The translations under genes and the position numbers were made by a program. A DNA stretch of 28,150 nucleotides from Oligoflexus sp. (GTDB lineage Bacteria; Bdellovibrionota_B; Oligoflexia; Oligoflexales; Oligoflexaceae). The stretch spans positions 1-28,150 of the forward strand of contig JBGSTX010000315.1 of NCBI GenBank assembly GCA_041736305.1. The letters are read 5' to 3'. This document shows positions 8,406 through 28,150 of this stretch, piece by piece. Within the stretch, counting starts at the first letter, position 1; each line of letters starts with the position of its first letter. The notes under the pieces were generated by a model. The model was not told the origin of the DNA and ran no database searches. It was given only the letters and a program-made list of their open reading frames with translations.

Positions 8406-8542
8406 ACAAGTGAGCGCACTCTTAAGCTCCGCTATCGTCCCGAGGCTCGGGATCGGCTGGACCTTACGCATTCCCCTGGTGTAGACCATAATTCGATTTG
8501 TCGAGTATCGTGCTCGGTCGCTTTAACCTGGAAAGGTAGGCT

Positions 8543-9970: not shown

Positions 9971-10022
9971 GGCTGAAGGAACGAGACAAGAGACAAAAAA
10001 GATGAAGATGGAATAAGAATAA
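9965..10022. repeat. Run of four different short tandem duplications
   Basis: GGCTGA x2 (9965-9976), GAGACAA x2 (9983-9996), AAGATG x2 (9999-10010) and GAATAA x2 (10011-10022). Confidence 0.7.
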
Positions 10023-10046
10023 ACACCTTCTTAAGAAGGGGTAAGA

Positions 10047-10601: not shown

Positions 10602-10632
10602 CCCGCAAGCGAGGATAGATGAGCACGGATCA

Positions 10633-10654
10633 GCTGTCGCTGCTAAGAGACAGC
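10633..10654. promoter_or_regulatory. GlrR-type binding palindrome TGTC-N10-GACA
   Basis: GC-TGTC-GCTGCTAAGA-GACA-GC in the intergenic region directly upstream of the glrR-like gene. Confidence 0.6.
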
Positions 10655-10679
10655 AATGGATTGAAAGGAGATCTTTCCG

Positions 10680-12038
10680 ATGAGCGAAGCAGCTGCCAAA
10701 ATTATGCTGGTAGATGACGACCATGGATTTCTGACTTTGCTAGCTATGCGCCTCGGCGCTGAAGGTTTTACGGTTGAAACAGCCAGCAACGGCCGCGACT
10801 GTCTCAACAAAATCGAAAGTTTTACGCCCGACCTCATGATCAGTGATCTGCGGATGGACGTAATGGACGGGATGGAACTCTACGGTCGCGTCCATCGCCT
10901 GATGCCTTATCTTCCCGTCATCATGATCACGGCCCATGGCAGTATTCCTGAAGCTGTTGCTGCTACGCAGCAGGGTGTTTTCTCCTTCTTGCCCAAACCG
11001 GTCGATCGCCAACAACTCTTCGACCTGATTCATCAAGCTCTCGAGCAAAAGGGCCATCTGCCATCGCAGCTTATTGAAGGCAGCGAAGTGAGCTGTATGT
11101 CGCGCAGTCCGAAGATGCTCGAACTCTACGAGCAGCTCCGGATGGTGGCGCCTTCCGAGGCGAGCGTCCTGATCACGGGTGAAAGTGGATCGGGCAAAGA
11201 GCTTTTCGCGCGTGCAGTCCATGCCGCCAGCCCTCGTTCGCAGGGTCCTTTCATCGCTATTAACTGCGGTGCAATACCGGCTGAACTTCTCGAGTCTGAG
11301 CTCTTCGGACATATGCGTGGATCGTTTACCGGCGCAAACAAGGACCATTCGGGCCTCTTCCAGTCGGCGCGCAGCGGGACGCTTTTTCTCGACGAAATCG
11401 GCGATATGCCTCTGCCCTTGCAGGTCAAGCTCTTGAGGGTGATAGAAGAGAAAAAAGTCCGCCCGGTCGGCAGCACCACCTCAGTTCCTATCGATGTCCG
11501 TATCATTTCTGCGACACATCGTGATTTACTCGGCATGATACAAGATCGATTGTTTCGCGAGGATCTTTATTATAGGCTCAACGTAATTCATCTGAGCTTG
11601 CCAGCCCTTCGGGAAAGACGAGAAGACATACCGCTGCTGGCTGAAGCTTTCCTGCAGGAGAATGCCGAAAGACAGAAGCCCAGCGTGAAAGCCTTTGCTT
11701 CGGGAGCTCTGGAGCTTTTAACGGCTGCTGAATGGCCCGGGAATGTCCGTCAGCTCTACAATGCTGTAGAGAAAATGGTGATTTTGTCTCCGAGCCCTAT
11801 TATTTCAGCGGCTCATGTAAGATGGTGCCTCGGCGAAACCCAAGCGGAATCACCGTCCTTGGCCGAAGCAAAGAATCAGTTTGAACGCGACTATCTAGTC
11901 GAGGCATTGAAGAAAACCCATGGCAATGTCAGTAAAGCCGCTCGTGCAGCAAAAAGAAATCGCACCGATTTTTATAAGCTTATGGCGAGACATAATTTGC
12001 AAGCTTCCAACTTTAAAGTATCGAGACGTCACCATTGA
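10680..12038 (+). CDS. glrR: Sigma54-dependent response regulator, GlrR/QseF-like
   Basis: REC domain (LVDDD, ISDLRMD, TAHGSIPEAVAATQQG), AAA+ domain (GESGSGKE, ESELFGH, GSFTGA, WPGNVRQL) and Fis-type HTH (GNVSKAARAAKRNRTDFYKL). Confidence 0.9.
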   Translation: MSEAAAKIMLVDDDHGFLTLLAMRLGAEGFTVETASNGRDCLNKIESFTPDLMISDLRMDVMDGMELYGRVHRLMPYLPVIMITAHGSIPEAVAATQQGVFSFLPKPVDRQQLFDLIHQALEQKGHLPSQLIEGSEVSCMSRSPKMLELYEQLRMVAPSEASVLITGESGSGKELFARAVHAASPRSQGPFIAINCGAIPAELLESELFGHMRGSFTGANKDHSGLFQSARSGTLFLDEIGDMPLPLQVKLLRVIEEKKVRPVGSTTSVPIDVRIISATHRDLLGMIQDRLFREDLYYRLNVIHLSLPALRERREDIPLLAEAFLQENAERQKPSVKAFASGALELLTAAEWPGNVRQLYNAVEKMVILSPSPIISAAHVRWCLGETQAESPSLAEAKNQFERDYLVEALKKTHGNVSKAARAAKRNRTDFYKLMARHNLQASNFKVSRRHH

Positions 12039-12174
12039 GTCAGTGAGTTCGATGAGAACTTCTTAAGACTTAAAAAAGATTTTTGCGAAATTTTTTGATT
12101 ATGTTATTGGTATGAAATGGTGCTTTTGGTTCTTTGGCAGCAGTTAGTGTCTGCTCAATTTTTGGAGATTTCAG

Positions 12175-12405
12175 ATGAAAAAGCTTTTTCTAGCCGTTCT
12201 TTTTTCAGGTGTAGCTTTTGCTGGCGGGAAAAAAGGCGAAGATCATTTCAAAACCCTCGACAAAGATGCTGATGGCTTTGTATCTGCTGAAGAAGCAGCT
12301 ACTCATACTGAACTCAACACTGCTTTCACCACTCTCGACAAAGATGGTGACAAGAAGTTGAGCTCTGACGAATACAAGACTTTCGATAAGAAAGCTAAGA
12401 AGTAA
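12175..12405 (+). CDS. Secreted two-EF-hand Ca2+-binding protein
   Basis: Signal peptide (…GVAFA), EF loops DKDADGFVSAEE and DKDGDKKLSSDE, and a GGAG RBS. Confidence 0.85.
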   Translation: MKKLFLAVLFSGVAFAGGKKGEDHFKTLDKDADGFVSAEEAATHTELNTAFTTLDKDGDKKLSSDEYKTFDKKAKK

Positions 12406-12414
12406 GTAGCAGAC

Positions 12415-13668
12415 TCAGATTTCTGAGGCGAGGTGCCGGGCTAATGGCTCTGGCGCCTTTTTTATTTTATCAGAGTCATAGCCTTTCAATACGGGAATCG
12501 TAACGTCTACCACGGTACCCTGAGCCTCTTCCGAATCGACCTGAAACACGCCGCGCATAGAATCGATAATCTTCTTGCAAAGATTCAGGCCCAGTCCAAT
12601 CCCGGTGCGACTGTGATGACGGAAACTATCACCTTGGTAAAAAAGCTGACAGCAGCGCTCGAGCTGGATATCGTTCATCCCCCTCCCTGAGTCGCTTATC
12701 TTAAACTGCAGAGCGATATGGGCGGGGGCAAGTGCAATCTTGCTCGATCCTCTTTCTACTGCAGAAATCCGGATCTCGATGTAGCCGCGATCAGTGAAGC
12801 GCACACTGTTGAAGAGGATTTGGGTCAACATGTGGCGGAGTAGCTTCACGTCGCCTATGAGGTTCTCAGGCACTTCGGGCGCGACGTGTATATGCAGCTG
12901 GAGCTTCTTTTCTTTGCAAAGGGGATGAAACTGCTGCTCGCAGTAGGCGACCAAGTCGTTGAGCTTAAAGGGGGCCAAGGAGAGGCTGAATTGGGAGCTG
13001 TCCAGATGAGTGTAAAGGAGGACTCCCTCAATTATCTGGCCAAGACGCATCGTTGAACGATGGGAGTTTCGGATAACGTCGAGAGCGGTCTGATCGTTGT
13101 GGCTTTCGAGCAAATCTTCGAGAGTCATCAGGATAACATTGAGCGGCGTCCGCAGCTCGTGGCCGATGATGCCGAGAAAATCGCGCTTGGCCCGATCTGA
13201 AGTCTCAGCCATCGAACGGGCGGCGGCCAGCTCCTGCATATAAACCTTGTTCCGCGCCTGCAGGCGCCACTTGGCTCCAAGATTCATCACCATCTGCTTG
13301 ACTTCGGAGACACGGAAGGGCTTGTTGAGGAACAGGTACTTATCGCAGATGCCGAGTTGCTCGGCAATCTCCATCCACGATTCACTGGCATAGGCTGAAC
13401 AGATAATTAATTCGATATCAGGATCAACCGCTCTGATGCGCTCGATAGTTTCGAGGCCGTTCCAGTCGCTGGGCTCGTTGATATCGACTATGGCCAGAGC
13501 ATAGGGCTCGCCCTGTTCGTAGCTTTTTTGCAGATGAGTAAGAGCTTCGTCGGCGGCGAATGCCGAATCGAACTCGTAGCGAGGATTGTCATGAAACAGA
13601 TTCCGCAGCTGCTCATGGACTTCGGGAAGCTCATCGATGATCAGAACGCGCAGGTTCTGCGTCGGCAT
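12415..13668 (-). CDS. Cytoplasmic hybrid kinase (REC-HisKA-HATPase)
   Basis: N-terminal receiver (VLIIDE, AIVDI, LNKPF), H-box IGHELRTPL, N-box FNSVRFT and G boxes DSGRGM and GIGLGL. Confidence 0.88.
   Translation of the reverse strand: MPTQNLRVLIIDELPEVHEQLRNLFHDNPRYEFDSAFAADEALTHLQKSYEQGEPYALAIVDINEPSDWNGLETIERIRAVDPDIELIICSAYASESWMEIAEQLGICDKYLFLNKPFRVSEVKQMVMNLGAKWRLQARNKVYMQELAAARSMAETSDRAKRDFLGIIGHELRTPLNVILMTLEDLLESHNDQTALDVIRNSHRSTMRLGQIIEGVLLYTHLDSSQFSLSLAPFKLNDLVAYCEQQFHPLCKEKKLQLHIHVAPEVPENLIGDVKLLRHMLTQILFNSVRFTDRGYIEIRISAVERGSSKIALAPAHIALQFKISDSGRGMNDIQLERCCQLFYQGDSFRHHSRTGIGLGLNLCKKIIDSMRGVFQVDSEEAQGTVVDVTIPVLKGYDSDKIKKAPEPLARHLASEI
12431..12463 (+). terminator. Probable terminator of the EF-hand gene, inside the 3' end of the convergent kinase gene
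   Basis: AGGTGCCGGG…TCTGGCGCCT stem (with G-U pairs) followed by a T-run. Confidence 0.55.
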
Positions 13669-13697
13669 GCGATTCTACCTTTTAGGAACCAATGCTC

Positions 13698-14483
13698 TTA
13701 ATGAACAAAGGTAATAACTATTTCGAAAAGTATGAGAAGCACAATAGCCATTTCCAGCCAATAAAGCCGACGGTCGCGGACCGTCTCGACTACGACCGAA
13801 AGCGTCTGCTGAATCAATTGCAGCTTGTATTCCAAGGCTTGAAAGCGTTCGGGTAGATCGAACATGGCACGAAGGTCGCCGTAGATCTCATCCATGACTT
13901 TGTCTTCCCAAATCAGATCCGGCTTATCGAGAAGATGGAGTACGCGGACTACGGTACTGCGCAGCGAGAGGGATTCGGCAATTTGCTTATTGATAGGCGA
14001 GGGTAGAAGGGAGAGCGTCCCACGCAATTTAAGCTGATTAAGTAGCGCGTCAACCTGGTTCCAAGCTTCTTCGACCAAGGACTCATAATATTCCATGGAC
14101 GTGCTTTGAGCCAGTGTTGAGGCTATGACTTCCATCCGGTCGGGATTCAAGCGATCGATGATCAGACGATTGAATTCAACCTGGGCCGAACCAGCTTGCT
14201 CGACTACAGTAAAGTTATCGCTGAACTTAGGCTTCAGATTGGGGACAGCATCGAGTCCGAGAAGTCGGTTCAGGTGATCAGACTGCTCTTCGGCCGCCAC
14301 GTTCCAGAATACTACTGAACCATAGTTGAAAATGAAGATGTATCCATCGCTACCAACTTTGGCACTCAGAGAAGCCCAGGGATCGATGGAAGACTGCGAA
14401 GCCGATAAGGACTTGGCTAGTTCCATCATATTGAGGCTATGGGCAAAAACAAAAGATCGCAGGTTGAACAGACGAGAGTCCAT
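13698..14483 (-). CDS. RMD1 family (DUF155/YagE-like) protein
   Basis: FIFNYGSVVFWN, LAQS…YYE, LLDKPDLIWE, ERF..LEYKL and the C-terminal LEMAIVLLILFEI. Confidence 0.88.
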   Translation of the reverse strand: MDSRLFNLRSFVFAHSLNMMELAKSLSASQSSIDPWASLSAKVGSDGYIFIFNYGSVVFWNVAAEEQSDHLNRLLGLDAVPNLKPKFSDNFTVVEQAGSAQVEFNRLIIDRLNPDRMEVIASTLAQSTSMEYYESLVEEAWNQVDALLNQLKLRGTLSLLPSPINKQIAESLSLRSTVVRVLHLLDKPDLIWEDKVMDEIYGDLRAMFDLPERFQALEYKLQLIQQTLSVVVETVRDRRLYWLEMAIVLLILFEIVITFVH

Positions 14484-14572
14484 ATAAGTCCCTGGCCGTT
14501 AGGCAACAAGTGGTCATAATGTATTGTATGCGACTTGCGCGTTGGGCCACAAGCGGGCAAGCTCAAGCAGAC

Positions 14573-17503
14573 TTAGTGGGCTAATTTGGCATCTACATCG
14601 AGATCAACGGATTTGTTGATTTCTTCACGCCAGCTTTCCGTAGTTGTTCCTTGCTTGGCCAAGCGGAGAGCTTGCTCTTTCAAATCTTTGCGCGCGGCGG
14701 CTAGCTTATTGAGGTATAATGTCTTGAAATCATTAAAGCTTTTAACTCTAGAAGGACCGAGCGTGTCGGCTATCTCGACCTTCTGAACAGCCTCCATAGC
14801 CTGCTTGGCAACCGAAGTCAGGCGCCACAGAGCAGGCGCACACATTGTATTCATGCCAATTTGGCAAACTTTCGCGTAAGGCTGCTTTTCGACGTCGAAG
14901 CGATCCGCATATTTCTTCACGGTCGCTTCGGGATCACGAATTTGCAGGTTACTCTCATTGTTGGAAATGGGCTGAGTCGTCAGCTCGGCCTGACGAAAGC
15001 GAAGTTGAGCTAGGGCTTCGAGTGCCTCTTTCGATTGCGAAACGTGGGGTAGGAGCCTGGCTTCAAGCTCTTCTACACCTTTCAGCTCTTTGCTTTGAGC
15101 GAGGTACCGACCCATGAAAGCGAGTCCCCGGATAGTGAATGGATCTTGGGGCGACGCGAGCTGGAGGATGCGTTGAGCCCCCCAGTAGGCATCTTTCATT
15201 TCGCCAAACTGTTCTTCGATCTCCATGACCTTCGCTGCGGCGTCCAGCTGTATCTCTTTGGAAACATTAGCTGCTGAGCTCTGCTCGCGATAGGTCCGCG
15301 AGGCCCAGCCGTAAAGCTTTCTCTTCAAGTAGGTCTCAGCGAGAGCCTGTCGGACTTGGGGTGCATTGCCTTCATTTTTATAATCGGCTAGGTATTTTGT
15401 ATAAAAATAAATCGCGAATTCAGTCGTCGATTTATCGAGCAGAGCCCACTCGGCTGCCTGCAAGAGAAGCTTGGGGCGGGCCGGGTAGGCGGGATAGCGC
15501 TCTGCTATCGTCCTACACGCATTGAGGGCCGGCGTGTATCGGTTTTGTCCAACGTAAGCAAGGGCTGCGAAGTGAACCGCCTGAGGAATGCGGGGATCGT
15601 TCCCATACAATTGGACGAATTCCTCTAGGTTCTTGGCCGCCCGGGGATAAACCTTGCTAAGTAGGTCGGCACTACCTCCATTGAAGAGTGCATCAGCTAG
15701 CCAGGGAGCATAGTCCAGAGCTTTTGATTTTACCATCACTTCGAGTTTTTTGTTTTTGCAGAGATGGGCCAGATCAATGAAGTCTTGCCAGCGTTTGGCG
15801 GTATGGAAATCCGTGAGTAAGATTCCGCTGGCCTCCATTGCAAACTTTCCCTGAGCCTTTTGCAGAGCGGGCCGCCAAAGTTCTTCGGCAGCCTTATCCC
15901 GGCCGAGGGCTCGATGCAAGAGGCCCATGTGAGCCAAGAAAAACCATTCATCGGCGCCCTTGGTTTTCAATCCCCGCTCGAAAATTCCGATCAGCTTCTG
16001 CCTTTCCTCTTCAGGGCCGGACTGAATTCCTTCAAACGGAGGCTGCTGTGGCCATTTAGCGAGCTGGCTTTGTGATTCGATGGCCGCTAGCAGGAGCTTG
16101 CCGCTGCTATCTTTCGGGGCAAGTTCGAGGTAGAGAGCTGTCGCTTCTGGGTACTGATTGAGGCTGCGGTAAAGCTGAGCTAGCTTCACCTTGTAAGGAA
16201 AGGTCGAGGGCGATTCATTTTCTATTTTACAGTAGCTGACGAGAGTCTGGACGATGGCGGACTTCCGGGCCGCAGGGGTCTGAGCTTGATTCGCTTGAAC
16301 GATGAGTTGGTCGAGAACTCCCCGGTAGCCTTCAGCGACGCTCTGCCAAAGACCTGCAGCCGGACTGGATTTTCGCTTGGCCTCGTCGCGATACCGTCCA
16401 CGTAGATCGAGGTAAGACTTTTCCAAATCGGCTATGGCATTTGACTTCTGATATATGAGCAGATTGGTATCCCAAATCCGCTTGTCTGTGTCTAGGGCAA
16501 GGTCGGGCAGATTCTCCGCGATAGTGCGGTAGAGAGCGATGGCGGCCGGATATTTCTGCGCTTTTATCAGAGCGATCGCCTTGCGTTCGCGAAGGGCTTC
16601 GATGGGACGCTGGCTTTTAAAGCCGCTGCTGAGGTAATTAGGGATCTTGTTTTCTTTGCTGCTCGGCGTCATATTCCAAATTGAAATCGTCGTGTTGAGA
16701 ACATGGCTTTGCGCAGCAGCTGGCAGAGCTTTCGATGCTGTGGCAGCTACAGCGAGCTTCACGTCGTAGGTGGCTTTGACCGTTCCAGTCTGACGACCTT
16801 CGCCATCTATACCGATATCCATGGATGCTTCTATCAGCTTCAGAGCTATCTTCCCGTAGTTGTCAAGGGAAGGTGCTGCCTGATTCAGTAAGTTAGAGGC
16901 CTGACCAGCATTATTTGGGCTCGAGGCCAGAGGATAAGCGGTCAATAGATCAAGGTTTGCCGCAAGTGCTTTGCTGTTTTTAAGCTGTGGACGAAGAGCC
17001 GTCAGCTCACTGAGGCCATCAGCACCATTGGAAAGATAGAACTGGGCTAATTTCTGATAGTAGGCGAACTTAGCTTTTTTCTGAGGATTTTTCACGGCCT
17101 CAAAGCCCGATCCTGCATAGGTCTCGAGCCACTTGGCCGTTGGTGCGATGCGATCTTCTACATCATGGCTCAAGTAGTAATGGAGGAGCTTAGCTGCTCC
17201 CAAGGTTAAATTCTTACTAGTCTCGACAGATATGGGATTTTTCAAGGTCTTGATAGTTTGCTGGGTTTTATTCCAGAGGACCTCTGCCTCTTCTGCTTCT
17301 AGATATTTCGAATCAGTCGAGAGTGCAGCTAGCACCAAAAGGCGATGCATCTGCGAGGGGAATTCCTGCGATAGCAGCGGTTCGAACGAAACGCTAAGCG
17401 ACGCAGACTTTGCTCGCTCGTCGGCAAGTAAGGGAAACGCCAGGGGCAGCTGGCTCAAAATCCAGATGAAACCCAGGTTTAGTGTTGACTGCCTCCAACT
17501 CAT
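14573..17503 (-). CDS. Large secreted tetratricopeptide-repeat protein
   Basis: 976 aa, signal peptide and numerous TPR-like helices (e.g. AAKNLEEFVQLYGNDPRIPQAVHFAALAY). Confidence 0.7.
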   Translation of the reverse strand: MSWRQSTLNLGFIWILSQLPLAFPLLADERAKSASLSVSFEPLLSQEFPSQMHRLLVLAALSTDSKYLEAEEAEVLWNKTQQTIKTLKNPISVETSKNLTLGAAKLLHYYLSHDVEDRIAPTAKWLETYAGSGFEAVKNPQKKAKFAYYQKLAQFYLSNGADGLSELTALRPQLKNSKALAANLDLLTAYPLASSPNNAGQASNLLNQAAPSLDNYGKIALKLIEASMDIGIDGEGRQTGTVKATYDVKLAVAATASKALPAAAQSHVLNTTISIWNMTPSSKENKIPNYLSSGFKSQRPIEALRERKAIALIKAQKYPAAIALYRTIAENLPDLALDTDKRIWDTNLLIYQKSNAIADLEKSYLDLRGRYRDEAKRKSSPAAGLWQSVAEGYRGVLDQLIVQANQAQTPAARKSAIVQTLVSYCKIENESPSTFPYKVKLAQLYRSLNQYPEATALYLELAPKDSSGKLLLAAIESQSQLAKWPQQPPFEGIQSGPEEERQKLIGIFERGLKTKGADEWFFLAHMGLLHRALGRDKAAEELWRPALQKAQGKFAMEASGILLTDFHTAKRWQDFIDLAHLCKNKKLEVMVKSKALDYAPWLADALFNGGSADLLSKVYPRAAKNLEEFVQLYGNDPRIPQAVHFAALAYVGQNRYTPALNACRTIAERYPAYPARPKLLLQAAEWALLDKSTTEFAIYFYTKYLADYKNEGNAPQVRQALAETYLKRKLYGWASRTYREQSSAANVSKEIQLDAAAKVMEIEEQFGEMKDAYWGAQRILQLASPQDPFTIRGLAFMGRYLAQSKELKGVEELEARLLPHVSQSKEALEALAQLRFRQAELTTQPISNNESNLQIRDPEATVKKYADRFDVEKQPYAKVCQIGMNTMCAPALWRLTSVAKQAMEAVQKVEIADTLGPSRVKSFNDFKTLYLNKLAAARKDLKEQALRLAKQGTTTESWREEINKSVDLDVDAKLAH

Positions 17504-19740: not shown

Positions 19741-20607
19741 ATGATAGGAATCGTAGGCCCTGGGGCACTCGGTCATATGCTGAGCTTTTTTATTCAAAAG
19801 GCTGGGAATACGCCGGTCCAGTTGATAGGTAGACAAGGCCCACAAGAAATCCACGCAGAGATTTTCTGGGAAAACTCTTGGCAGTCCTGCGAAGTTCCTC
19901 TCAGCGATGAACCCTGCGATATGCTCTTAGTCGTTGTTAAAAGCTATGATCTCCTCGTCGCACTAGAGAACTCACTTCCCCGTCTAAAAGCCGGAGGAGT
20001 GCTGGTCTTGCTTGGCAATGGCTACCTCGAAGCGCTTGTTTCAGAGCTGCGGCAGGGGCAGACGCAGGTTCTCTGGCGCAAAGGCCTGGTCACCCGAGGG
20101 GTACGTCTCGAGGGTGAGAAGCGCTTCGTCTTGAGCAGCGAAGGTAAAATCCTCTGGGGAGGCAGGGACCCCGTGCATCCTCTGGAGCAAAATCTATTTG
20201 ATGCGCTGCAGAGTTTTGGTTTCGGCTGGGCTCAAGATGCTTGCGAACTTCGACGCGAAAAGTGGTTCTTTAATACAGTGCTGAATACCCTGACGGGCGT
20301 CTATCATTTGCCGAGCAACGGCGATGCACTTCGACTCTTTGCACAGGAGTTGGAGGTCTTGGCTGAAGAAGTGTTTGCTCTAGGACAGGAACTCTGGCCG
20401 GATTGGACGAAAAGCTGGGATCAGCTCTGGATCAGGCTTCTACAGCTTATTAAAGCGACAGAGAACAATGAGAATTCTATGGCTCGGGATGTTCGTTTGG
20501 GAAGAAGGACCGAAGCAGCCGTTCTTTCCGGCTGCCTTGCACTAGCTAAAAATCGCAGCGCCTATCCCTTGCTAGAGGGCTTCGATCGTCGCTTAGTGAG
20601 TCGGTGA
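19741..20607 (+). CDS. panE: 2-dehydropantoate 2-reductase (ketopantoate reductase) family
   Basis: IGIVGPGALG Rossmann motif, VVKSYD, LGNG, K..FN..LN.LT and NENSMARDVRLGRRTE. Start reassigned to ATG 19741, which follows GGAG. Confidence 0.85.
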   Translation: MIGIVGPGALGHMLSFFIQKAGNTPVQLIGRQGPQEIHAEIFWENSWQSCEVPLSDEPCDMLLVVVKSYDLLVALENSLPRLKAGGVLVLLGNGYLEALVSELRQGQTQVLWRKGLVTRGVRLEGEKRFVLSSEGKILWGGRDPVHPLEQNLFDALQSFGFGWAQDACELRREKWFFNTVLNTLTGVYHLPSNGDALRLFAQELEVLAEEVFALGQELWPDWTKSWDQLWIRLLQLIKATENNENSMARDVRLGRRTEAAVLSGCLALAKNRSAYPLLEGFDRRLVSR

Positions 20608-21546
20608 TTCTTGGCAAGCTTCACTGCTGCTATCAGCAACTAGGCCTAGCGAGCGCGCGCCGATCTCTTCGAAAGTACAGCTGATCCAGCCTTGATAACG
20701 GGTGAGGTCCATGAGAGTCCCACCACCTGCTTCGCAGCTGAGATCAGTATTGCGACCGGGGCCGGTGGTTGAGCCGACTAGAAAAAGACAGGAGCCGCCT
20801 TCCCCTTGAATGAAAGTCGGGCCACCCGAGTCACCGAAGCAGGCTCCCTTGCCAGTTCCGGACTCGAGTTGTAGCTCGCGGATGTCGGAGCGAAGAGAAG
20901 CGAGTTGAAGACGAGCTGTAGATAAAGGACGAAGCTGCCGGTCGCCCGTGTTGTAGGCTCCATATCCCGAGAGAATAACGGGCATGCCAGCGCCGATATT
21001 TTCTGGCTGGGCTAGAGCTACAGGGACCATGCCTTTTTGGAGGTTGCCCTTAAATTTTATGACTGCGACGTCGTTGAAGGCCTGCTCACGGATTCCGTTA
21101 CTGTCGGCTGAAATGCTCGTGAACTGCGGGTGCAGCCGAAAGGCGGTAACTTTCAACGCATCGATGACCGTACCTTGCGTGCCAAATCCCAGACGCAGCT
21201 CGTCAGGAGATTTGACGTCTTTGAGGCAATGGGCGGCAGTCACAAGGTGCTCGGGGCCGATCAGAGTTCCGGTACAAAAGCGTTGATTGCGTACCCATAT
21301 TTTTAGCGTCGAAGCGGTAGCTAAATCATCAGCTGCGACAGTCTCACCACCTACTATTTTGTAGGCAGCAGAGTTGGGGCAAGAAGGGGCCTTTGGCATT
21401 GCCGCTTTGGCGATAGCCTGCTGTGAGTTTTCGGAACTTTGATCTTGAGCTGAGGTTTGGGAAGTCTGTCCGGACTCGCGGCATACAGTGAGCAGGGGCA
21501 TCGCACCTAGCAGAATTGTAAGATAGGTCGCACTCATTTTTGCCAT
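20593..21546 (-). CDS. Secreted trypsin-like (S1A) serine protease
   Basis: Zymogen site K|IVGG, TAAHC, NDVAV and GACFGDSGGP. Start ATG 21546 follows a GAGGAGG RBS. Confidence 0.92.
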   Translation of the reverse strand: MAKMSATYLTILLGAMPLLTVCRESGQTSQTSAQDQSSENSQQAIAKAAMPKAPSCPNSAAYKIVGGETVAADDLATASTLKIWVRNQRFCTGTLIGPEHLVTAAHCLKDVKSPDELRLGFGTQGTVIDALKVTAFRLHPQFTSISADSNGIREQAFNDVAVIKFKGNLQKGMVPVALAQPENIGAGMPVILSGYGAYNTGDRQLRPLSTARLQLASLRSDIRELQLESGTGKGACFGDSGGPTFIQGEGGSCLFLVGSTTGPGRNTDLSCEAGGGTLMDLTRYQGWISCTFEEIGARSLGLVADSSSEACQESPTH

Positions 21547-21570
21547 GAAGCCTCCTCTAAGCTCCAAAGG

Positions 21571-21597
21571 CTATCGGCAAAGTCCTTAAAAATAATA
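21571..21597 (-). promoter_or_regulatory. Putative sigma28-type promoter
   Basis: GCCGATAG -10 box 24 bp upstream of the protease start; the -35 box is degenerate (TATT). Confidence 0.4.
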
Positions 21598-21731
21598 AAG
21601 TATTTGGGTAAGTGTCTGATATTAAAGCATTAAAGGCTTGGTCTTCAGATACTGAAAAGCGCGAGGGGGATTTTGGAGTTTGATTTAAAGGGTGAGTCTG
21701 TCCTGCAGATGATAGCAGGACAGAGAATGGT

Positions 21732-22730
21732 TCAGATGCGACTACAAACTGTTTCCAGAATGAGCTGAGTAACCATATAGGGGTCACAGTTAGCAGCAGG
21801 ACGACGATCTTCGATATAGCCCTTACCTTCTTGAGCTACCTGCCAAGGAATACGCACCGAAGCTCCGCGGTCAGAAACTCCGTACTTATATTCGCGATAA
21901 GAGCAGGTTTCATGCATGCCAGTCAGACGATCTTCGATACCTGCTCCGTAGTTAGAGATGTGCAGCTCATGACGTTCGCCGAGAGCTTGCGCTGCCTGCA
22001 CACATTTTTGGTAGGAATCCCGCATCGAAGCTGTCGAGAAGTTGGTATGGCAGCCGGCACCATTCCAGTCGCCCTTGACTGGCTTGGGATCAAGGCTGAC
22101 GTGTACGCCGTATTTTTCAGAAATGCGGCTGAGGAGCCAGCGGGCGATGACCATCTGGTCGGCGACTTCGGGAGCAGCAACGGGACCGACTTGAAATTCC
22201 CACTGAGCCGGCATGACTTCAGCATTGATTCCGGAAATCTTTAGACCAGCGGCCAGACAGGCGTCTAGGTGCTCTTCGACGATATCGCGACCATAAACAT
22301 AATCACCACCGACGCTGCAGTAATAAGGACCTTGGGGTGGGGGAAAACCAGCGGTCGGCCAGCCGAGAGGACGTCCTTCTTTGAAGAGAGTGTACTCCTG
22401 CTCAATGCCGAACCACATATCATCTTTGAGGTAGCGTTGAGCGATTTCTGCACACTTTGCCCGCGTATTGCTGGGGTGCGGGGCCATATCTATGGTGAGA
22501 ACTTCACAAACGACCAATCTGTGTTGAGCACCGCGAATCGGGTCCGGACAGACGTAAACAGGTTTCAGAACACAGTCGGAAGCTTTTCCAGGAGCCTGAT
22601 TTGTACTCGATCCGTCGAAACCCCAGATAGGAGGTTCTGAGTCACTATCGATAATCTTCGTTTTAGAACGGAGCAATGGAGTAGGCTTCGTTCCGTCTAT
22701 CCAAATATACTCGGCCTTATATTGACTCAT
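21732..22730 (-). CDS. glnII: Glutamine synthetase type II
   Basis: 332 aa with AEYIWIDG, LRSKTK, WGFDGSSTNQA, GIEQEY, GINAEVMPAQWEFQVG, GDWNGAGCHTNFS, RLTGMHET and EDRRPAANCDPY. Confidence 0.95.
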   Translation of the reverse strand: MSQYKAEYIWIDGTKPTPLLRSKTKIIDSDSEPPIWGFDGSSTNQAPGKASDCVLKPVYVCPDPIRGAQHRLVVCEVLTIDMAPHPSNTRAKCAEIAQRYLKDDMWFGIEQEYTLFKEGRPLGWPTAGFPPPQGPYYCSVGGDYVYGRDIVEEHLDACLAAGLKISGINAEVMPAQWEFQVGPVAAPEVADQMVIARWLLSRISEKYGVHVSLDPKPVKGDWNGAGCHTNFSTASMRDSYQKCVQAAQALGERHELHISNYGAGIEDRLTGMHETCSYREYKYGVSDRGASVRIPWQVAQEGKGYIEDRRPAANCDPYMVTQLILETVCSRI

Positions 22731-22784
22731 GTTCGCTTCCTAAATCCAAAAAGTTGAAATTGCGGCGATCGACTCCAGCCCCTA

Positions 22785-22801
22785 AGCAGAGGCTGTGCCA
22801 G
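22785..22801 (-). promoter_or_regulatory. Sigma54 (-24/-12) promoter of glnII
   Basis: The minus strand reads CTGGCACAGCCTCTGCT (GG-N10-GC with TGGCAC), about 55 bp upstream of the ATG. Confidence 0.8.
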
Positions 22802-23020
22802 CTTTTGTCTTCTGGAAAAATGTCTTGAAACAAGCTCACTTATGCGTAGAATAGTCAAAGCGTCTGAGTCAGAAAGAAAGAATCATGATTCGCATAGGTA
22901 GGAATGATAGGTGCTAAGCTACCATTTGGTTGGACTTATGAATTGCTGCTTTCAACTTGGCGTCTGGCGCATTTTTGGTTAGAAACTATGCTTCGAACCA
23001 TAGTCCTTTGAGAGGGAACC

Positions 23021-23296
23021 ATGTCGAATAAGTTTGATGCAGAAGCCTACGTAGCTCGTTGGGAGAAAGTCATCGTCCCGACTATGCTTTCCGTCATAGG
23101 GATCTCCCTTTTATTGGTGATTCTATTGAATATCAAGACCCAGCCTGATTGTCTGCGGCATGAGTTTGTCTACTGTGGAACACCCTCTCAGAGCAGCTAC
23201 CCAGTTCATCATGGGAGTGGAGGAGGCCACGGAACTGGGGCTGGTGACCCTCACCACGCTGATGAAGGTGCCTCAACGGGCCACGCTCCTCATTAA
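23021..23296 (+). CDS. Small single-TM protein with a His/Gly-rich tail
   Basis: GAGGG RBS, one hydrophobic helix, two Cys and the tail HHGSGGGHGTGAGDPHHADEGASTGHAPH. A terminator follows. Confidence 0.65.
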   Translation: MSNKFDAEAYVARWEKVIVPTMLSVIGISLLLVILLNIKTQPDCLRHEFVYCGTPSQSSYPVHHGSGGGHGTGAGDPHHADEGASTGHAPH

Positions 23297-23313
23297 TTTT
23301 CTGCGATCTATAG

Positions 23314-23355
23314 AGCAAGAGGCTGGGAACTAATTCTTGGCCTCTTGCTGTTTTT
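23314..23355 (+). terminator. Terminator hairpin between convergent genes
   Basis: AGCAAGAGGCTGGGAA-ctaa-TTCTTGGCCTCTTGCT followed by gTTTTT. Confidence 0.8.
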
Positions 23356-23368
23356 GTATGCGGAAAAT

Positions 23369-24406
23369 TTAGCGGAGAAGCGGAATACTTTGCGCGATGA
23401 CGGCTTCTCGGTTGATGTCCCTTACTTCGATTCTCATCGTGTTTTTCTGCCAATCAAGTTTGAGCAAGCCGTAGTTGAGACGGTTCAAAACCGGGCCGAC
23501 CCGCATACTGTTCTGGTTCTTGCTAGGATCGAAGGCCAGGTAGCTGTGGGTAAGGCCACTCGAGGTGACTTCCCATAGCTCGCGTCCGGACGGTAAATTG
23601 AGCTTGCTGAGTTCAGCAAAGTGGCGATCGCCACTGATGAGTAGAATATTGGAGGCCGGACTCTCATCGATGAGCTTTAGCAGGCGTTGCCGCGACGCGG
23701 GGAAATTGGCCCACTTTTCAAAGCGATGCTCACTCGGAATAACCTGTATGCTAGATACTACGAGTACGAGTTCAGCATCTTTCTTGGCTAACTCGGCTTC
23801 GAGCCAACGCCACTGTTCGGCTCCTAGCACATCGCCCTCGGGACCCGGCTTCGTAAGGTGATAGCGGGTATCGAGCAAAATTGTTTTCACGCGCTTCGTC
23901 AAAGGCCCCGAGAGATAGCTGGTGTAGATGCCAGCGCGCTGACGGCGCGGCGAATCCTGAGCCTCACCTATGAAATCGAGAAAGAGCTTCTGAGATGTAA
24001 GCTTGGGTTTCCAAGAACCGTCACCGTCGTTTTTCCCGTAGTCATGGTCATCATAGACACCTATCACCGGGACCTCTGTCGCTAGAAAAGCTCGATACTC
24101 CGGCTGTTCAAGTTCGGAAGTATAGATGCGAGCCAGCTTCTGCATATCAGGCGTGTCGCCATAAACTACATCTCCTGTCCAAACGAAGAGATCTGGCTGT
24201 TCCTCAGCGATTTTTCGCCAAAGAGGCTGAGGCAGCCCTTGTTTGTTGCAAGAGCCGAAGGTGATCGTTTGCAGGGGGGTACTCGATACAGCAGGCAGAC
24301 TCTTGGTTAGCTGGTTGCTGAGACCAAGCCCCTCTTCGAGAGCATCGGCTCCGCCGAAGCTGGTGCAGGCGCTCAGAAGAAAGATGGCGAAAAGAGAGAG
24401 TTTCAC
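23369..24406 (-). CDS. phoD: Alkaline phosphatase D family lipoprotein
   Basis: FGSC, GDVVYGD, YDDHDYG, LLDTRY, EKW and ISGDRH motifs; lipobox LSAC. Confidence 0.88.
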   Translation of the reverse strand: MKLSLFAIFLLSACTSFGGADALEEGLGLSNQLTKSLPAVSSTPLQTITFGSCNKQGLPQPLWRKIAEEQPDLFVWTGDVVYGDTPDMQKLARIYTSELEQPEYRAFLATEVPVIGVYDDHDYGKNDGDGSWKPKLTSQKLFLDFIGEAQDSPRRQRAGIYTSYLSGPLTKRVKTILLDTRYHLTKPGPEGDVLGAEQWRWLEAELAKKDAELVLVVSSIQVIPSEHRFEKWANFPASRQRLLKLIDESPASNILLISGDRHFAELSKLNLPSGRELWEVTSSGLTHSYLAFDPSKNQNSMRVGPVLNRLNYGLLKLDWQKNTMRIEVRDINREAVIAQSIPLLR

Positions 24407-24515
24407 AGATCACCTCGAAACTTTGGCGTAGATATGGAGACTGAATAACGTAGCTTTTGGTAGTGAAATTCGGCAAGTTTGTAAATGTTTTATTTCTTTC
24501 AAACCGAGAGGTGAT

Positions 24516-24998
24516 GTGATGTCTGAACTTTATACGTTCGAAGCCAAGACGATAGATGGCGAAGCTACTACGCTGAAACCTTATGAAGGCAAAGTTCTCC
24601 TCATCGTCAATGTCGCCAGTGCGTGTGGGCTCACGCCTCAGTATCAGGGTCTGCAGGAACTCTATGAAAACTACGGGGAAAAGGGCTTTAGCGTACTAGG
24701 CTTTCCTTGCAACCAGTTCGGTGCCCAGGAGCCTGGTACTGAGAAAGAAATAGCCCAGTTTTGCAGCACGAGCTTCGACGTTAGTTTTCCCATGTTTTCG
24801 AAGATCGAGGTCAACGGACCCGGCGCTCATCCCCTCTATCAGTACCTGAAGAAAAAACAGCCGGGTGCTGAGGGTAAGGCTGATATCGAGTGGAACTTCG
24901 CCAAATTTCTAGTCGATAGAAAAGGGCAGGTGGTCGAGCGTTTTTCTGCTCGAACCGAACCCTCGGCGATTAAAGCTAGAGTCGAAGCTCTCCTTTGA
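24516..24998 (+). CDS. btuE: Glutathione peroxidase (Cys-type)
   Basis: NVASACGLT.QY, LGFPCNQFGAQEPG and WNFAKFLVD. The start is GTG 24516 or ATG 24519. Confidence 0.93.
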   Translation: MMSELYTFEAKTIDGEATTLKPYEGKVLLIVNVASACGLTPQYQGLQELYENYGEKGFSVLGFPCNQFGAQEPGTEKEIAQFCSTSFDVSFPMFSKIEVNGPGAHPLYQYLKKKQPGAEGKADIEWNFAKFLVDRKGQVVERFSARTEPSAIKARVEALL

Positions 24999-25053
24999 TC
25001 GTATAGTGGTATACTGAATGCCATCGCCGCTTTTTTCTCATAGAGAGGAGCTT

Positions 25054-25383
25054 ATGGATTTTCGCATTCTTGGCTCGGGACTTTTGCTCTGCGTTTTATT
25101 TCAGTCGTCTTGTGCGACTCCTTTACTTGGATCTCGTGAACGTAAAGAAATGACTGGTCTCGAGGAGATGTCGCTCGAGTATCTCAAGGGCGAATGGGGT
25201 GACCCCGATAGCGACGTCGCCACTGGCGAGAAACGCATCGTCCATTATAAGAATGTCCGCAGCGAAGACCTCGAACCAATTTCTAGGCAGGTGACCGTCA
25301 AACACTGCGTCGTCAAACTTGAAATCAATAAAGCCGAAATGGTCTCGAGCTGGGAATACGAAAGTTGTGAAATAGACAAATAG
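25054..25383 (+). CDS. Small lipoprotein of unknown function
   Basis: GAGGAG RBS before ATG 25054, lipobox-like QSSC and a WGDPD motif. Two further Cys may form a disulfide. Confidence 0.7.
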   Translation: MDFRILGSGLLLCVLFQSSCATPLLGSRERKEMTGLEEMSLEYLKGEWGDPDSDVATGEKRIVHYKNVRSEDLEPISRQVTVKHCVVKLEINKAEMVSSWEYESCEIDK

Positions 25384-25385
25384 CT

Positions 25386-25832
25386 TCAGCCACACTGGCA
25401 GCGGATATCGGGATAGTCAGCAGAGACTCCCGATAGATGATACCAGGCTCCGCCAGGTATAGCCTGGGCTCCTGGACCTTCGACTCCCCCCTGGCCCTGC
25501 ATGCAGTGCTTCTTATCTGCGTTCAGACAACGAACGCTGTTCCTGCTCTGATCTGCTCCTGATTCTAAGACTCTGGGATAAGAACAAATGTAATCTTTAT
25601 CTGCATGCCGAGCGGGGCGGATTATGGAGCGTTTTGGGCATTCCGCTCGAGCCTCAAAATCTGGAGCCGCTTCCATCATTCCGGGTCGACGTCGGCGATG
25701 GGGGCAGTCGGCTACTTGCACTTGCACGTTTATATAGGCCTGCTGCTTGGGATCACAGTAGACCCACAGTTCTTCTGCAGATAGTTCTTGGGATAGTTGT
25801 AGGAGCAAGAAGAATAGCAGGATAGATCTCAT
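25386..25832 (-). CDS. Secreted Cys-rich protein, Hint-less paralog of the N-domain of the upstream gene
   Basis: Signal peptide and 8 Cys. Residues 80-148 align by hand with residues 52-121 of the 25835-26734 protein (31/70 identical). It ends PDIRCQCG*. Confidence 0.85.
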   Translation of the reverse strand: MRSILLFFLLLQLSQELSAEELWVYCDPKQQAYINVQVQVADCPHRRRRPGMMEAAPDFEARAECPKRSIIRPARHADKDYICSYPRVLESGADQSRNSVRCLNADKKHCMQGQGGVEGPGAQAIPGGAWYHLSGVSADYPDIRCQCG

Positions 25833-25834
25833 TT

Positions 25835-26734
25835 TTAGGGTGCCCCATCCTTCTTATGCTTTAAAAAATTCGCGATGCGGGATCTTCGCTCCGACAGTCT
25901 TTTCTGCCAGTTGAGATCACCGACGCGAATATTGTTCGCGATGATTGTATGTTCGGAGTCTGTCGCACCTCGCGAGTCGAAGTTGTAAACGAGCCGATCT
26001 TGCTCAGCAGGAAGGTAGGCGCTGATTTCGCTGAGAGTCTCTTCAGCGCCATCAGCTCCCCTGAGTGTATCTCCCAGGCGAAGGTGAGCGGCCTCGACCA
26101 TCTGCCACGCACTATTCCGCTGAACTAATACAGGATGCTGGTCGGTCATTCTCAAACTCTTGCCGCTGCTCGTGACTACTTGGACGAGAGGACTATTCTC
26201 AGGCCCTACGACAAAGTCCTGGTTCGTTAGACGAGCGGACCCCTTATAGGATGAGGTGTTTTCATCGATCACGGCCGCGGATATGCCACCGAGCGAAGAG
26301 GCTAGCTGGGACATAGAGTCGATGCGCATCTCCCCGAGATGAGTGAGAATCTTTACATCCCCGGGAAAGCATCCGCACTCACAGCGAACGTCTGGGAAAT
26401 CTTCGCTCTGGCCTGCAGCCCAGTACCACTGTCCCCGCGCTACGACGTGGGCTCCGCGACTGCCCTCCGAACCGCCTGCATCCAACTGGCAATTCTCGCG
26501 TTGATCCAAGAGACAGCGGAGAGTATTTCTCTCCGTCGCAGCTCCGGTCTCAGCTGCCGTCGGTGCGCTGCAAACCCAGTCAGCTATAGCCTTGCGTATA
26601 CTGAGAGTGACGTCTTCAAAAGCCTGAGCATCTTTGCAGTAGCCGAAATATTCGGTGTCGAGCCCGTAAGCAGGGCAAGAGAGCAAAGTAAGGAGGAGGC
26701 ATAGGGGGAGGCTTAACAATACTGATGCTTGCAT
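25835..26734 (-). CDS. Secreted Cys-rich domain plus Hint (Hedgehog/intein) autoprocessing domain
   Basis: Signal peptide and a six-Cys domain. Hint block A G121|C122-FPGDVKILT, block B LRMTDQHPVLV, AAHLRLGDTL, block F LVYNF, and block G IANNIRVGD lacking His-Asn. Confidence 0.88.
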   Translation of the reverse strand: MQASVLLSLPLCLLLTLLSCPAYGLDTEYFGYCKDAQAFEDVTLSIRKAIADWVCSAPTAAETGAATERNTLRCLLDQRENCQLDAGGSEGSRGAHVVARGQWYWAAGQSEDFPDVRCECGCFPGDVKILTHLGEMRIDSMSQLASSLGGISAAVIDENTSSYKGSARLTNQDFVVGPENSPLVQVVTSSGKSLRMTDQHPVLVQRNSAWQMVEAAHLRLGDTLRGADGAEETLSEISAYLPAEQDRLVYNFDSRGATDSEHTIIANNIRVGDLNWQKRLSERRSRIANFLKHKKDGAP

Positions 26735-26737
26735 AGT

Positions 26738-28150
26738 TCAAAGATCCTCTGAGTTTCTGTTTTTCACAGTTGAAAGAAGCCGGCGAAGAGCTCGCGCCGC
26801 GTTAGACTCGTCTTGGATCGATAGTCTTTCTGCCGCCGTTGCATGCGAGGAGACCTGCACCAGTAAGCAGCTAGCCTCAGATTTTAAAGCGAAGCTGGCG
26901 TTGTAACGATTCATCTTGCCCGGAAATTGGCGTAGTGATTCCGTATAATAGATGGGCTCTGCGTCTGCAGAAGCGAGGATTTTGGCCGGATCAGTCTTAA
27001 GCAGTAGTTCGATCTTCTTACAGCTGCTATCCATCAGGTCAATTTGTAATTCTATGGCTTGGCCATCGAGAGCGGTCTCCGTGAGAAGCTCGCTAAAGCG
27101 CCAGGCCCTGGTGTCCCCGAATCGCTCTTCGAAGAGACGCGCCGTTCGGCTCGGAAAAAGGATGTTCCAGTCTTTAGTTTTGTAGAGTGCCTCGTGCTCA
27201 TGCTGCTTTTCCTTAGGTTTCGGTAGTTCGACTATCAGCTGTCGCGTAGCTTTGCTACAGGCTTGTGGATCGGCATAACAAGACCTACCAAGATCTATCA
27301 GCTCGTCGAGAGCGCTGGAGATGTCCCTATAGGTAGTGCGCAGTGATGCGAGCTCGGCAGCAGAGAAGTCATAGGTTCCTTGATCGTAAAGATAGATGAA
27401 GGTATCGACTTTTTGGAGAATATCCTGATACCGCCACAGCTGACGCAAGAGCTGATCGATCCGAATACTCCGGGCTATATCGAGCGGATCACTCATGGAG
27501 AAATCGACAATCGTGTTCCAGTCGCTCATTTCAACTTCGATGACTGCAGCGTTTTTGCGCTTTAGGGTTTCGACGAATGCATCGATCGTAGCCTGGGGGT
27601 TTTCCTCAGCCAGCTGGAAATTGACTTTTTCGCCACCGCTCTGCTCAAACTCGCGTTTTAGGAAACTGTTTTGCTCGGCCTTTAAGAAAAGCGAGCGATA
27701 GGCTGCATGGCCATGGACCTTAAGTAAACCCGAACCGAAGGTGGCTTTCATTCTGGCAGAAATCTCTTTGACCTGGTCTAAAGCTTTCGCGCTTATTTCG
27801 AGGACATCGCTGATAGAACCACCCAGGCGAACCGATCTTATGAACTGGGTGCCACACATGCGAAAGAAGGCTTTCTTGGATTCCTCATTGCCAGCTCTTG
27901 CTCCGACGATGAGGGCTTTGGCTTCAGGTTTGAAAGAGTCGAGGGAAAGGCGCTCTGACTGCAGGGTTTTGGTGCCAACAACTGCTTTGAGGGTAAAGAG
28001 CCAGGTGAAACTCTCCTTGGAGGCAGCGAATTTATCATACTGAGAATAGCTCCCGCGACCCGAGAAGGCCCCGTATTTTACCTTGGCGTTAGCGGTCAGG
28101 TTCATTTCTTTGTAGAGATCTTCCTTAGAAGTGACTCTCGTCTCCGATAC
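26738..28150 (-). CDS. MACPF/CDC-like pore-forming domain protein (5' partial; starts beyond the window)
   Basis: The frame stays open to base 28150 (VSETRVTSKEDLYKEMN…). FFRMCGTQFIRSVRLGG (about 27818-27856) resembles the MACPF signature Y/F-G-T-H-F/Y-x6-GG. It is flanked by two TMH-like alternating segments (LTANAKVKYGAFSGRGSY; ISARMKATFGSGLLKVHGHAAY). Confidence 0.65.
   Translation of the reverse strand, partial: VSETRVTSKEDLYKEMNLTANAKVKYGAFSGRGSYSQYDKFAASKESFTWLFTLKAVVGTKTLQSERLSLDSFKPEAKALIVGARAGNEESKKAFFRMCGTQFIRSVRLGGSISDVLEISAKALDQVKEISARMKATFGSGLLKVHGHAAYRSLFLKAEQNSFLKREFEQSGGEKVNFQLAEENPQATIDAFVETLKRKNAAVIEVEMSDWNTIVDFSMSDPLDIARSIRIDQLLRQLWRYQDILQKVDTFIYLYDQGTYDFSAAELASLRTTYRDISSALDELIDLGRSCYADPQACSKATRQLIVELPKPKEKQHEHEALYKTKDWNILFPSRTARLFEERFGDTRAWRFSELLTETALDGQAIELQIDLMDSSCKKIELLLKTDPAKILASADAEPIYYTESLRQFPGKMNRYNASFALKSEASCLLVQVSSHATAAERLSIQDESNAARALRRLLSTVKNRNSEDL

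Follow-up and report, generated by a model that had tools for sequence, protein, structure and literature searches.

In nematodes, the hedgehog-related families include Warthog and Groundhog precursors, which coexist with Wart-only, Ground-only and Ground-like genes (described in sections of PMC2362128 and PMC1636047). Hedge-only genes occur in sponge and Nematostella, and loss of the Hog domain is discussed as one route to N-domain-only genes in sections of the same papers (PMC2362128, PMC1636047). In bacteria, Hint-fold autoprocessing is described for the bacterial intein-like (BIL) domains of types A, B and C, which occur in non-conserved secreted proteins and cleave at their N-terminal junction (passages of PMC5874633 and PMC7765530). 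The role of bacterial BIL-like Hint domains for their host proteins is poorly understood. Here, a locus of Oligoflexus sp. is described (GenBank assembly GCA_041736305.1, contig JBGSTX010000315.1) in which P0001, a precursor with a predicted self-cleaving C-terminal Hint domain, lies beside a paralogue, P0002, that ends exactly where the Hint domain of P0001 begins. The stretch that was analysed, 28,150 nucleotides and referred to as the window, is the entire contig, and its source assembly comprises 5.0 Mb in 392 contigs. One homologue is assigned to Pseudobdellovibrionaceae at its source. The Hint domain is probably a release module; P0001 would be a precursor that cleaves itself, and P0002, whose own Hint domain has been lost, would encode the mature domain directly. 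This family therefore offers a natural experiment on the role of such Hint domains, with the same domain present with and without Hint in one operon.

The nematode families provide the closest analogy; they are described, in the sections cited above, as secreted precursors with a Cys-containing N-domain and a C-terminal Hint/Hog domain that stand beside N-domain-only paralogues. The case in the window differs in being bacterial, in having an unrelated N-domain, in having a tail of 26 residues as opposed to a sterol or adduct recognition region (SRR/ARR), and in having a MACPF-like operon partner. In addition, the direction of loss is shown here by Hint-bearing relatives. Mechanistically, the closest family is that of the BIL domains (passages of PMC5874633 and PMC7765530).

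The MACPF-like gene P0003, P0001 and P0002 form a three-gene operon in the window. The three open reading frames (ORFs) are arranged head to tail on the minus strand in that order, with spacers of 3 nt and then 2 nt. The features of the two paralogues are as follows.

Positions 25835..26734, minus strand: P0001, 299 aa, consisting of a signal peptide, a six-Cys N-domain, a Hint domain and a tail helix.
Positions 26663..26734, minus strand: predicted Sec signal peptide of P0001, residues 1-24, a hydrophobic N-terminus ending AYG, read from the sequence alone.
Positions 26372..26662, minus strand: six-Cys N-domain of P0001, residues 25-121, with the end CECG.
Positions 26369..26371, minus strand: Cys1 codon of the Hint domain, TGC, encoding C122, the predicted nucleophile; the predicted scissile bond is G121/C122.
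Positions 25916..26371, minus strand: Hint domain of P0001, residues 122-273, with block B being T197-D-Q-H200-P.
Positions 25838..25915, minus strand: conserved C-terminal tail of P0001, residues 274-299, a predicted helix.
Positions 25386..25832, minus strand: P0002, 148 aa, consisting of a signal peptide and a type-2 N-domain with 8 Cys; CQCG is followed by TGA (25386-25388).

Alignment of P0001 with P0002 by BLASTP gave 33 identities over 80 positions (41%, E 2e-20) and ends at G121 of P0001 and G148 of P0002, the latter being the last residue of the protein. The codon after G121 is TGC (26371-26369) and the codon after G148 is TGA (25388-25386). The invariant columns in an alignment of 12 N-domain sequences (A1) are the six Cys, one Arg and the final Gly. 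Within P0002 there is an insertion that adds two Cys, C43 and C65, and an HRRRRPG run; the insertion and its two Cys are common to other proteins of the P0002 type (type 2, with P0001 representing type 1), and the RRRR run is present only in P0002. An earlier note, made from the letters of this DNA, had claimed that the twin ends at the predicted cleavage site, that the twin matches each of the six Cys of the first domain, that TGA sits at the position of the Cys1 TGC codon, that the twin has an insertion with two extra Cys and an RRRR patch, and that no Hint remnant follows the stop. Each of these claims agrees with the present results. Its hand count was 31 identities in 70, against 33 in 80 by BLASTP.

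No Hint sequence was detected past 25389 by tblastn with either P0001 or a Hint-bearing type-2 relative, P0014, even at E 10. The family profile A2 matches P0002 at profile positions 7-119 only, ending at 25389, and read-through of the TGA yields 47 unrelated codons followed by TAA. All three approaches being negative, no Hint remnant is present past the stop. The DNA 3’ of the stop belongs to a genuine convergent gene, P0015. The end of P0002 marks the boundary between the N-domain and the Hint domain.

Three technical or genetic explanations for this end were rejected. Misassembly at the junction is ruled out by a contig from a different study (X2, 7872 nt, ~95.5% identical) that bridges 24800-26092 and has no listed difference within 25366-25400. 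Selenocysteine insertion or read-through at the TGA is contradicted by the frame beyond it, which shows no likeness to Hint and closes after 47 codons; TGA is also the stop codon of P0003, the gene upstream. A split Hint acting in trans was rejected as well, as the three other Hint matches of the genome sit within open frames of 512-578 aa.

The same operon is present in another genome of the genus (G069), with a 550-aa MACPF-like gene, a 298-aa type-1 gene and a 324-aa type-2 gene, P0014. The product of the latter aligns with residues 20-148 of P0002 at 39% identity, the two-Cys insertion included, and runs past CQCG as /CFAGE... into a full Hint domain. Further Hint-bearing type-2 forms are the proteins P0023 and P0024 and the metagenome loci L062 and L063. 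The search for related loci with a narrower type-2 alignment (A3) yielded one genome locus, which is that of G069 itself, and two metagenome loci, one of which is also downstream of a type-1 gene. Because type-2 relatives carry a complete Hint domain after CQCG, the C-terminus of P0002 is, as judged by sequence comparison, derived by secondary loss of the Hint domain and not original. The earlier note had taken this C-terminus to be a natural one, a view that does not hold given the full Hint domains of P0014, P0023, P0024, L062 and L063.

The junction codons are ggc TGA in the window, as against gga TGC in G069 and ggc TGC in L062. Two routes would explain this equally well: a C-to-A nonsense change and then a deletion up to the stop of the neighbouring gene, or a deletion or rearrangement that produced the TGA where its ends were joined. 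The neighbouring features are as follows.

Positions 25384..25385, no strand: 2-nt spacer separating the convergent stops, and the end of the conserved block PhoD-glutathione peroxidase (GSHPx)-P0015.
Positions 25018..25383, plus strand: P0015, 121 aa, conserved, convergent to P0002, with no Pfam family.

P0015 ends in TAG, 2 nt from the TGA of P0002, and is present in 12 of the 13 other genomes of the genus. The PhoD-glutathione peroxidase-P0015 block is syntenic in G071, whose Hint operon lies elsewhere, and in G069 P0015 sits on a different contig. The stop of P0002 therefore coincides with a break in synteny.

In an alternative reading, P0002 would be a dead remnant, namely a type-2 precursor gene that a nonsense change or a deletion has made a pseudogene and that ends at the domain boundary by chance. 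The Hint domains of its relatives, which make P0002 a truncated form, and the position of its stop at the synteny break are compatible with this, as are the truncation of other family members inside Hint and a word-based search with P0002 that found no relative of 81-259 aa. However, comparison of the X2 strain with the window over 115 codons of P0002 revealed 13 synonymous and 8 non-synonymous codon changes. The Nei-Gojobori method, applied to the same codons from one contig per strain and leaving aside residues 1-33 (differences beyond 25731) and a compensating indel pair at 25567/25570, gave 14.5 synonymous differences (Sd), 10.5 non-synonymous differences (Nd) and a ratio of non-synonymous to synonymous rates (dN/dS) of 0.20, with the listed Cys codons kept. 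A ratio of 0.20 between strains indicates that P0002 is a maintained gene under purifying selection and not a decaying truncation. P0002 also retains its start codon, its signal peptide, all 8 Cys and its 2-nt spacing within the operon, the same structure is found in a strain from another study, and three other stand-alone forms end no more than 5 residues from the same point. A dead remnant is thus very unlikely. The earlier note had allowed that the twin could be just a recent nonsense truncation, which is contradicted by the dN/dS value and by the same junction in the second strain. As a separate observation, the synonymous rate (dS) between the two strains varies within 24800-25832, being 0.04 for P0015, 0.21 for P0002 and 0.17 for part of the glutathione peroxidase gene, and this may reflect recombination or low counts.

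What follows the CxCG motif across the family was tabulated with a profile of the N-domain, an approach that the earlier note had proposed. Searched against 1.84 billion cluster representatives at a threshold of E <= 0.001, the profile found 43 proteins, which fall into the following classes.

Full Hint and tail, with CxCG/C followed by at least 165 residues: 34 of 43, some with extra N-terminal regions.
Stop within Hint: 4 of 43 (P0017, P0031, P0045 and P0030).
N-terminal fragment: 1 of 43 (P0056).
Stand-alone, no Hint: 4 of 43 (P0002, P0047, P0033 and P0049).

A domain other than Hint was not found after the CxCG motif in any of the 43 members. The stand-alone proteins end in CQCG-stop (P0002), in CHCG-stop (P0047, on a 717-nt contig), in CPC followed by EAPAS (P0033, on a 29-kb contig) and in CLC followed by LGYLGY (P0049, on a 5.6-kb contig), which places their ends 0, 0, 4 and 5 residues beyond the Gly position. 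P0033 and P0049 lack the terminal Gly. That the four Hint-less proteins among 43 all end within 5 residues of this position is more than chance. Among 131 genomes of the phylum, the N-domain is present in 10; 15 of its 16 places are in open frames of 273-351 aa, and P0002 alone is in a short frame. When P0002 was used as the query, 6 of 95 genomes of the order matched, and each alignment ends at residue 148.

A tree was built from 59 N-domains, omitting two non-family proteins, four cluster members, one near-duplicate, P0056, P0010, L037 and the partial L063. P0002 is placed in a well-supported clade with P0024, P0023 and L062 (96/93). P0047 and P0049, which are 34% identical, form a pair (support 94/93), suggesting from sequence an older Hint-less lineage, and P0033 pairs with the Hint-bearing P0014 (92/87). 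The tree requires three state changes (losses or gains), two of which are forced by well-supported branches. The stand-alone proteins thus represent two or more independent lineages.

The Hint domain of P0001 was compared with known Hint families by sequence and by structure. Residues C122, T197, H200 and P201 show no variation among the 20 family members that were aligned. NCBIfam TIGR01445, the intein N-terminal splicing region, reaches 25.7 bits and so exceeds its cut-off of 24.5; its positions 1-83 fall on residues 122-204, and its position 1 on C122. A profile of the 20 family members searched against Protein Data Bank (PDB) sequences matched mini-inteins (E 8.5e-8) and the bacterial intein-like domain 2lwy (E 0.002). 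The AlphaFold2 (AF2) model of P0001 has a predicted local distance difference test score (pLDDT) mostly above 90 over residues 122-273, a helix at 274-295, and an N-domain with a pLDDT of ~40. Foldseek against the PDB returned 66 matches at E <= 0.001 with inteins, BIL and Hedgehog leading (E 3e-10 to 1e-6); ordered by E-value, these are inteins, the Clostridium thermocellum BIL domain, the Tetrahymena BIL2 domain and Hedgehog 1at0. P0001 thus has three characters of the Hint superfamily, namely the Hint fold, Cys as the first residue and a TxxH block B; the autocatalytic cleavage of the upstream peptide bond that also characterizes the superfamily is predicted for it. The cleavage site predicted in the earlier note, between G121 and C122, is supported by the invariance of Cys122, T197 and H200 in 20 of 20 sequences and by the placement of TIGR01445 position 1 on C122.

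The position of the intein His-Asn pair is occupied by an invariant Gly-Asp (G272-D273; 20 of 20 sequences), followed by L/N-W-Q. The absence of a C-extein means that the Hint domain of P0001 is predicted to cleave but cannot splice. N-terminal cleavage independent of the C-terminal motif is established intein chemistry. Cleavage of this kind, with no need for the C-terminal motif, is also described in part of a review (PMC7765530). In mature P0001, Cys1 is the sole Cys outside the N-domain; the N-domain has 6 Cys and mature P0002 has 8. These counts would fit a fully disulfide-bonded N-domain together with a free catalytic thiol.

The Hint domain could instead be inert, a structural or export helper that stays attached, with the shared boundary reflecting architecture only. 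All Pfam Hint families score below cut-off for P0001 (PF01079, 12.4 bits against 29.7; PF14890, 19.6 against 35.8; PF07591, 13.4 against 27.7), and these scores agree with an inert domain, as does the replacement of His-Asn by Gly-Asp. However, Cys1, T197, H200 and P201 are invariant, and TIGR01445 is above its cut-off. The placement of Cys1 as the only Cys outside the N-domain, and the independence of N-terminal cleavage from the C-terminal motif, also argue against inertness. An inert Hint domain is therefore highly improbable.

These observations suggest the following scheme. P0001 and P0002 would represent two paralogue types of a secreted, disulfide-rich family whose members are normally precursors with a C-terminal Hint domain. 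P0001 would be exported by Sec, and its N-domain would fold with three disulfides. C122, aided by T197 and H200, would attack the G121 carbonyl in an N-to-S acyl shift, and the resulting thioester would be resolved, most simply by water, to give a domain of ~97 residues ending in CECG-COOH. P0002, as comparison with its relatives shows, descends from a type-2 precursor, its Hint domain having been removed through a TGC-to-TGA change at Cys1 and/or through a deletion or rearrangement ending at the Cys1 codon. The gene would now encode the mature domain directly and is kept by purifying selection. Comparable Hint-less forms emerged on at least two further occasions within the family. According to this scheme, the Hint domain is a dispensable maturation module and may also function in timing, with the true domain boundary lying at the CxC(G) end.

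Several points weigh against release as the role of the Hint domain. With 34 of 43 members retaining it, and with E179 and the tail helix both invariant, the Hint domain may do more than release. Truncation is not confined to the boundary, as 4 of 43 members stop inside Hint at +34, +69, +89 and +138; among these, P0017 is on a 549-nt contig and is probably limited by it, and P0030 has a 288-aa cluster member. The ends of P0033, P0047 and P0049 are known from protein only, and P0047, on its 717-nt contig, could be cut by the contig end. Support for the P0047-P0049 and P0033-P0014 pairs is only 94/93 and 92/87, and P0033 and P0049 are long-branched. In addition, the dN/dS value of P0002 comes from one contig per strain and the 115 codons described above, and the Pfam Hint models are all below cut-off.

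The thioester might be used for ligation, being passed to a specific nucleophile on a lipid, on a component of the envelope or on a lysine of a protein, in the manner of Hedgehog cholesteroylation or of Tetrahymena BUBL BIL2. The P0001 domain would then be anchored or conjugated, and P0002 would be a soluble, unmodified form with a different role. The Hedgehog structure 1at0 is among the fold matches of the P0001 Hint domain. The G/CF junction is presumably the same tripeptide as that of the Hedgehog site, and E179, an invariant residue in a GPE motif 18 residues before T197, may resemble the Hedgehog general base. After the Hint domain, Q277, L280 and R286 are invariant within a conserved helix that lies where an adduct-recognition region would be, and the retention of Hint in 34 of 43 members is also in keeping with ligation. 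A precedent exists in BIL2, which is described as forming isopeptide bonds without ATP (part of PMC8616854). However, the repeated Hint-less forms and the purifying selection on P0002 indicate that the domain works with a free carboxylate, the terminal Gly is lost in P0033 and P0049, and the tail is only 26 residues. Ligation is accordingly considered unlikely. Because the Hint-less forms are recurrent and selected and two of them lack the Gly, the evidence leans toward plain release with a free carboxylate over transfer. A more specific and quite improbable version is a bacterial Hedgehog-like maturation, in which the six-Cys domain would be passed through its Gly thioester onto a lipid, the envelope or a protein by the Hint domain with its tail helix and E179, arming or aiming the MACPF-like pore former, with P0002-type proteins serving as diffusible, unanchored ligands.

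Among BIL domains, the C. thermocellum structure 2lwy ranks with the best fold matches of the P0001 Hint domain, at a template modelling (TM) score of 0.85 on the target. The likeness is to type B, in which the intein motifs are kept save the C-terminal one, as judged by the description in part of PMC7765530 and not by a type-B profile score. P0001 differs from type A in the replacement of His-Asn by Gly-Asp (20 of 20 sequences), and from BIL domains generally in that no domain follows its Hint domain, which occupies the extreme C-terminus. The C-type BILs reported from predatory bacteria, a type with its own motifs and an association with the PPS-1 domain, may represent this same group or a sister to it, as judged from citing sentences (PMC9185962).

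A bacterial group of C-terminal Hint-like proteins was described by Burglin in 2008 from Myxococcus, Stigmatella, Photorhabdus, Serratia, Yersinia and Reinekea (part of PMC2362128). These proteins resemble P0001 in having a signal peptide, an N-region with two conserved Cys and a divergent C-terminal Hint-like domain (same part of PMC2362128). The comparison of this group with the present N-domain family is by text description only, and the N-domain profile found only the 43 unnamed proteins. The Hedgehog Hog proteins share with P0001 a signal peptide, a signalling domain, G/CF, Hint and a C-terminal helical region, and the fold match to 1at0 has an E of 1.5e-6; P0001 is not a member of the family, with 12.4 bits against 29.7 for PF01079, and its conserved helix of 26 residues is much shorter than the SRR. 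The BIL2 domain of Tetrahymena BUBL (6y75, fold match E 2.4e-8) uses the Hint thioester for ligation, according to part of PMC8616854. BIL2 is flanked by ubiquitin-like domains and carries an Asn at its C-terminus, whereas P0001 has no downstream acceptor domain. Inteins and PT-HINT share the fold, Cys1 and the TxxH block with P0001. P0001 has no C-extein, terminal Asn or +1 nucleophile and so falls outside the inteins, and with 13.4 bits against 27.7 for PF07591 and no downstream toxin domain it falls outside PT-HINT.

The N-domain itself has no Pfam, NCBIfam or PDB sequence match (the PDB having been searched with profile A1), and it is probably an unnamed domain, as had been supposed in the earlier note. 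An AF2 model of mature P0002 from 12 sequences had a mean pLDDT of 55.7, too poor for a fold search, and the ESM Atlas contained no usable match for P0002. The Hint-less twin fixes the cleavage site genetically and presents the N-domain as an autonomous unit that tolerates a free C-terminus. P0002 is thus a ready-made construct for structural and functional work without autoprocessing control. Extra regions precede the six-Cys domain in P0036, P0042, P0051 and P0054. Those of P0054 include repeated Cys-rich units, CGDG.VD.GE.CD; P0036 has 150 extra residues and no obvious signal peptide, and its start may be mis-called on its 1455-nt contig.

The remaining gene of the operon is as follows.

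Positions 26738..28150, minus strand: P0003, MACPF-like, the first operon gene, truncated on its 5’ side where the contig stops, with a Pfam MACPF match.

P0003 scores 23.7 bits against a cut-off of 21.5 with Pfam MACPF (PF01823; E 6e-5), and its complete relative in G069, of 550 aa, is 50% identical. Among its other relatives, that of G040 reaches 16.6 bits, below the cut-off of 21.5, and five have no match to PF01823. A PDB sequence search with the MACPF-like profile A4 gave only matches of E 0.34 and 0.91, which were taken as chance. A gene of 540-590 aa lies upstream of the Hint gene in six related loci, and only some of these are recognisably MACPF-like; Pfam found nothing credible in ten neighbouring ORFs of related loci. 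PADLOC returned nothing for P0001, P0002, P0003 or the MACPF-like protein of G069. No report of a MACPF-like/Hint operon was found in a literature search on Hint domains with MACPF in bacteria or in Oligoflexia. Linkage to a MACPF-like gene is suggestive of a function in attack or defence; the bacteria concerned are relatives of predatory ones.

A scan of 24900-28150 for promoters and terminators found nothing resembling a promoter, and the convergent genes have no terminator between them. As to expression, no RNA data set was listed for this DNA. Pfam matches within 20593-24998 of the window are ordinary, comprising a trypsin-like peptidase, a glutamine synthetase-like gene, a PhoD-like phosphatase and glutathione peroxidase.

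Of 95 genomes of the order, 56 contain matches to the P0001 Hint domain, at up to 8 places in a single genome. Other small secreted proteins in the order have different Cys-rich N-regions and the same C-x-C-G/C-F junction. As this junction is shared across differing N-regions, Cys at -2 and Gly at -1 represent a signature of the Hint clan that extends beyond the six-Cys domain. C-terminal Hint proteins are greatly expanded in the order, and many are ~640 aa long and end in CG/CF, Hint and a short GDLYLQ-type tail (e.g. L022, L012, L023 and L030).

Outside the clade with tandem paralogues, a conserved gene of ~250 aa follows the Hint gene; its product has one N-terminal hydrophobic segment and no Pfam family. 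It is located at 6198-7013 in L034, 7512-8318 in L035, 9868-10617 in L036, 9267-10022 in L037, 7564-8352 in L038 and 9253-9999 in L039. These loci lack the type-2 paralogue, and the gene is absent from the window and from G069. Two genes past the Hint gene, L036 (10632-11270, in G071) and L037 (10051-10677, in G064) contain a Cys-rich secreted ORF of 208-212 aa, the two copies being 84% identical. In L040 (G072:C38:282000-300000; ~7876-15039, minus strand), two divergent small Hint genes of 297 and 275 aa, with the junctions RCQCG/CV and /CS, lie downstream of a 592-aa gene and are interleaved with four ORFs of 228-283 aa.

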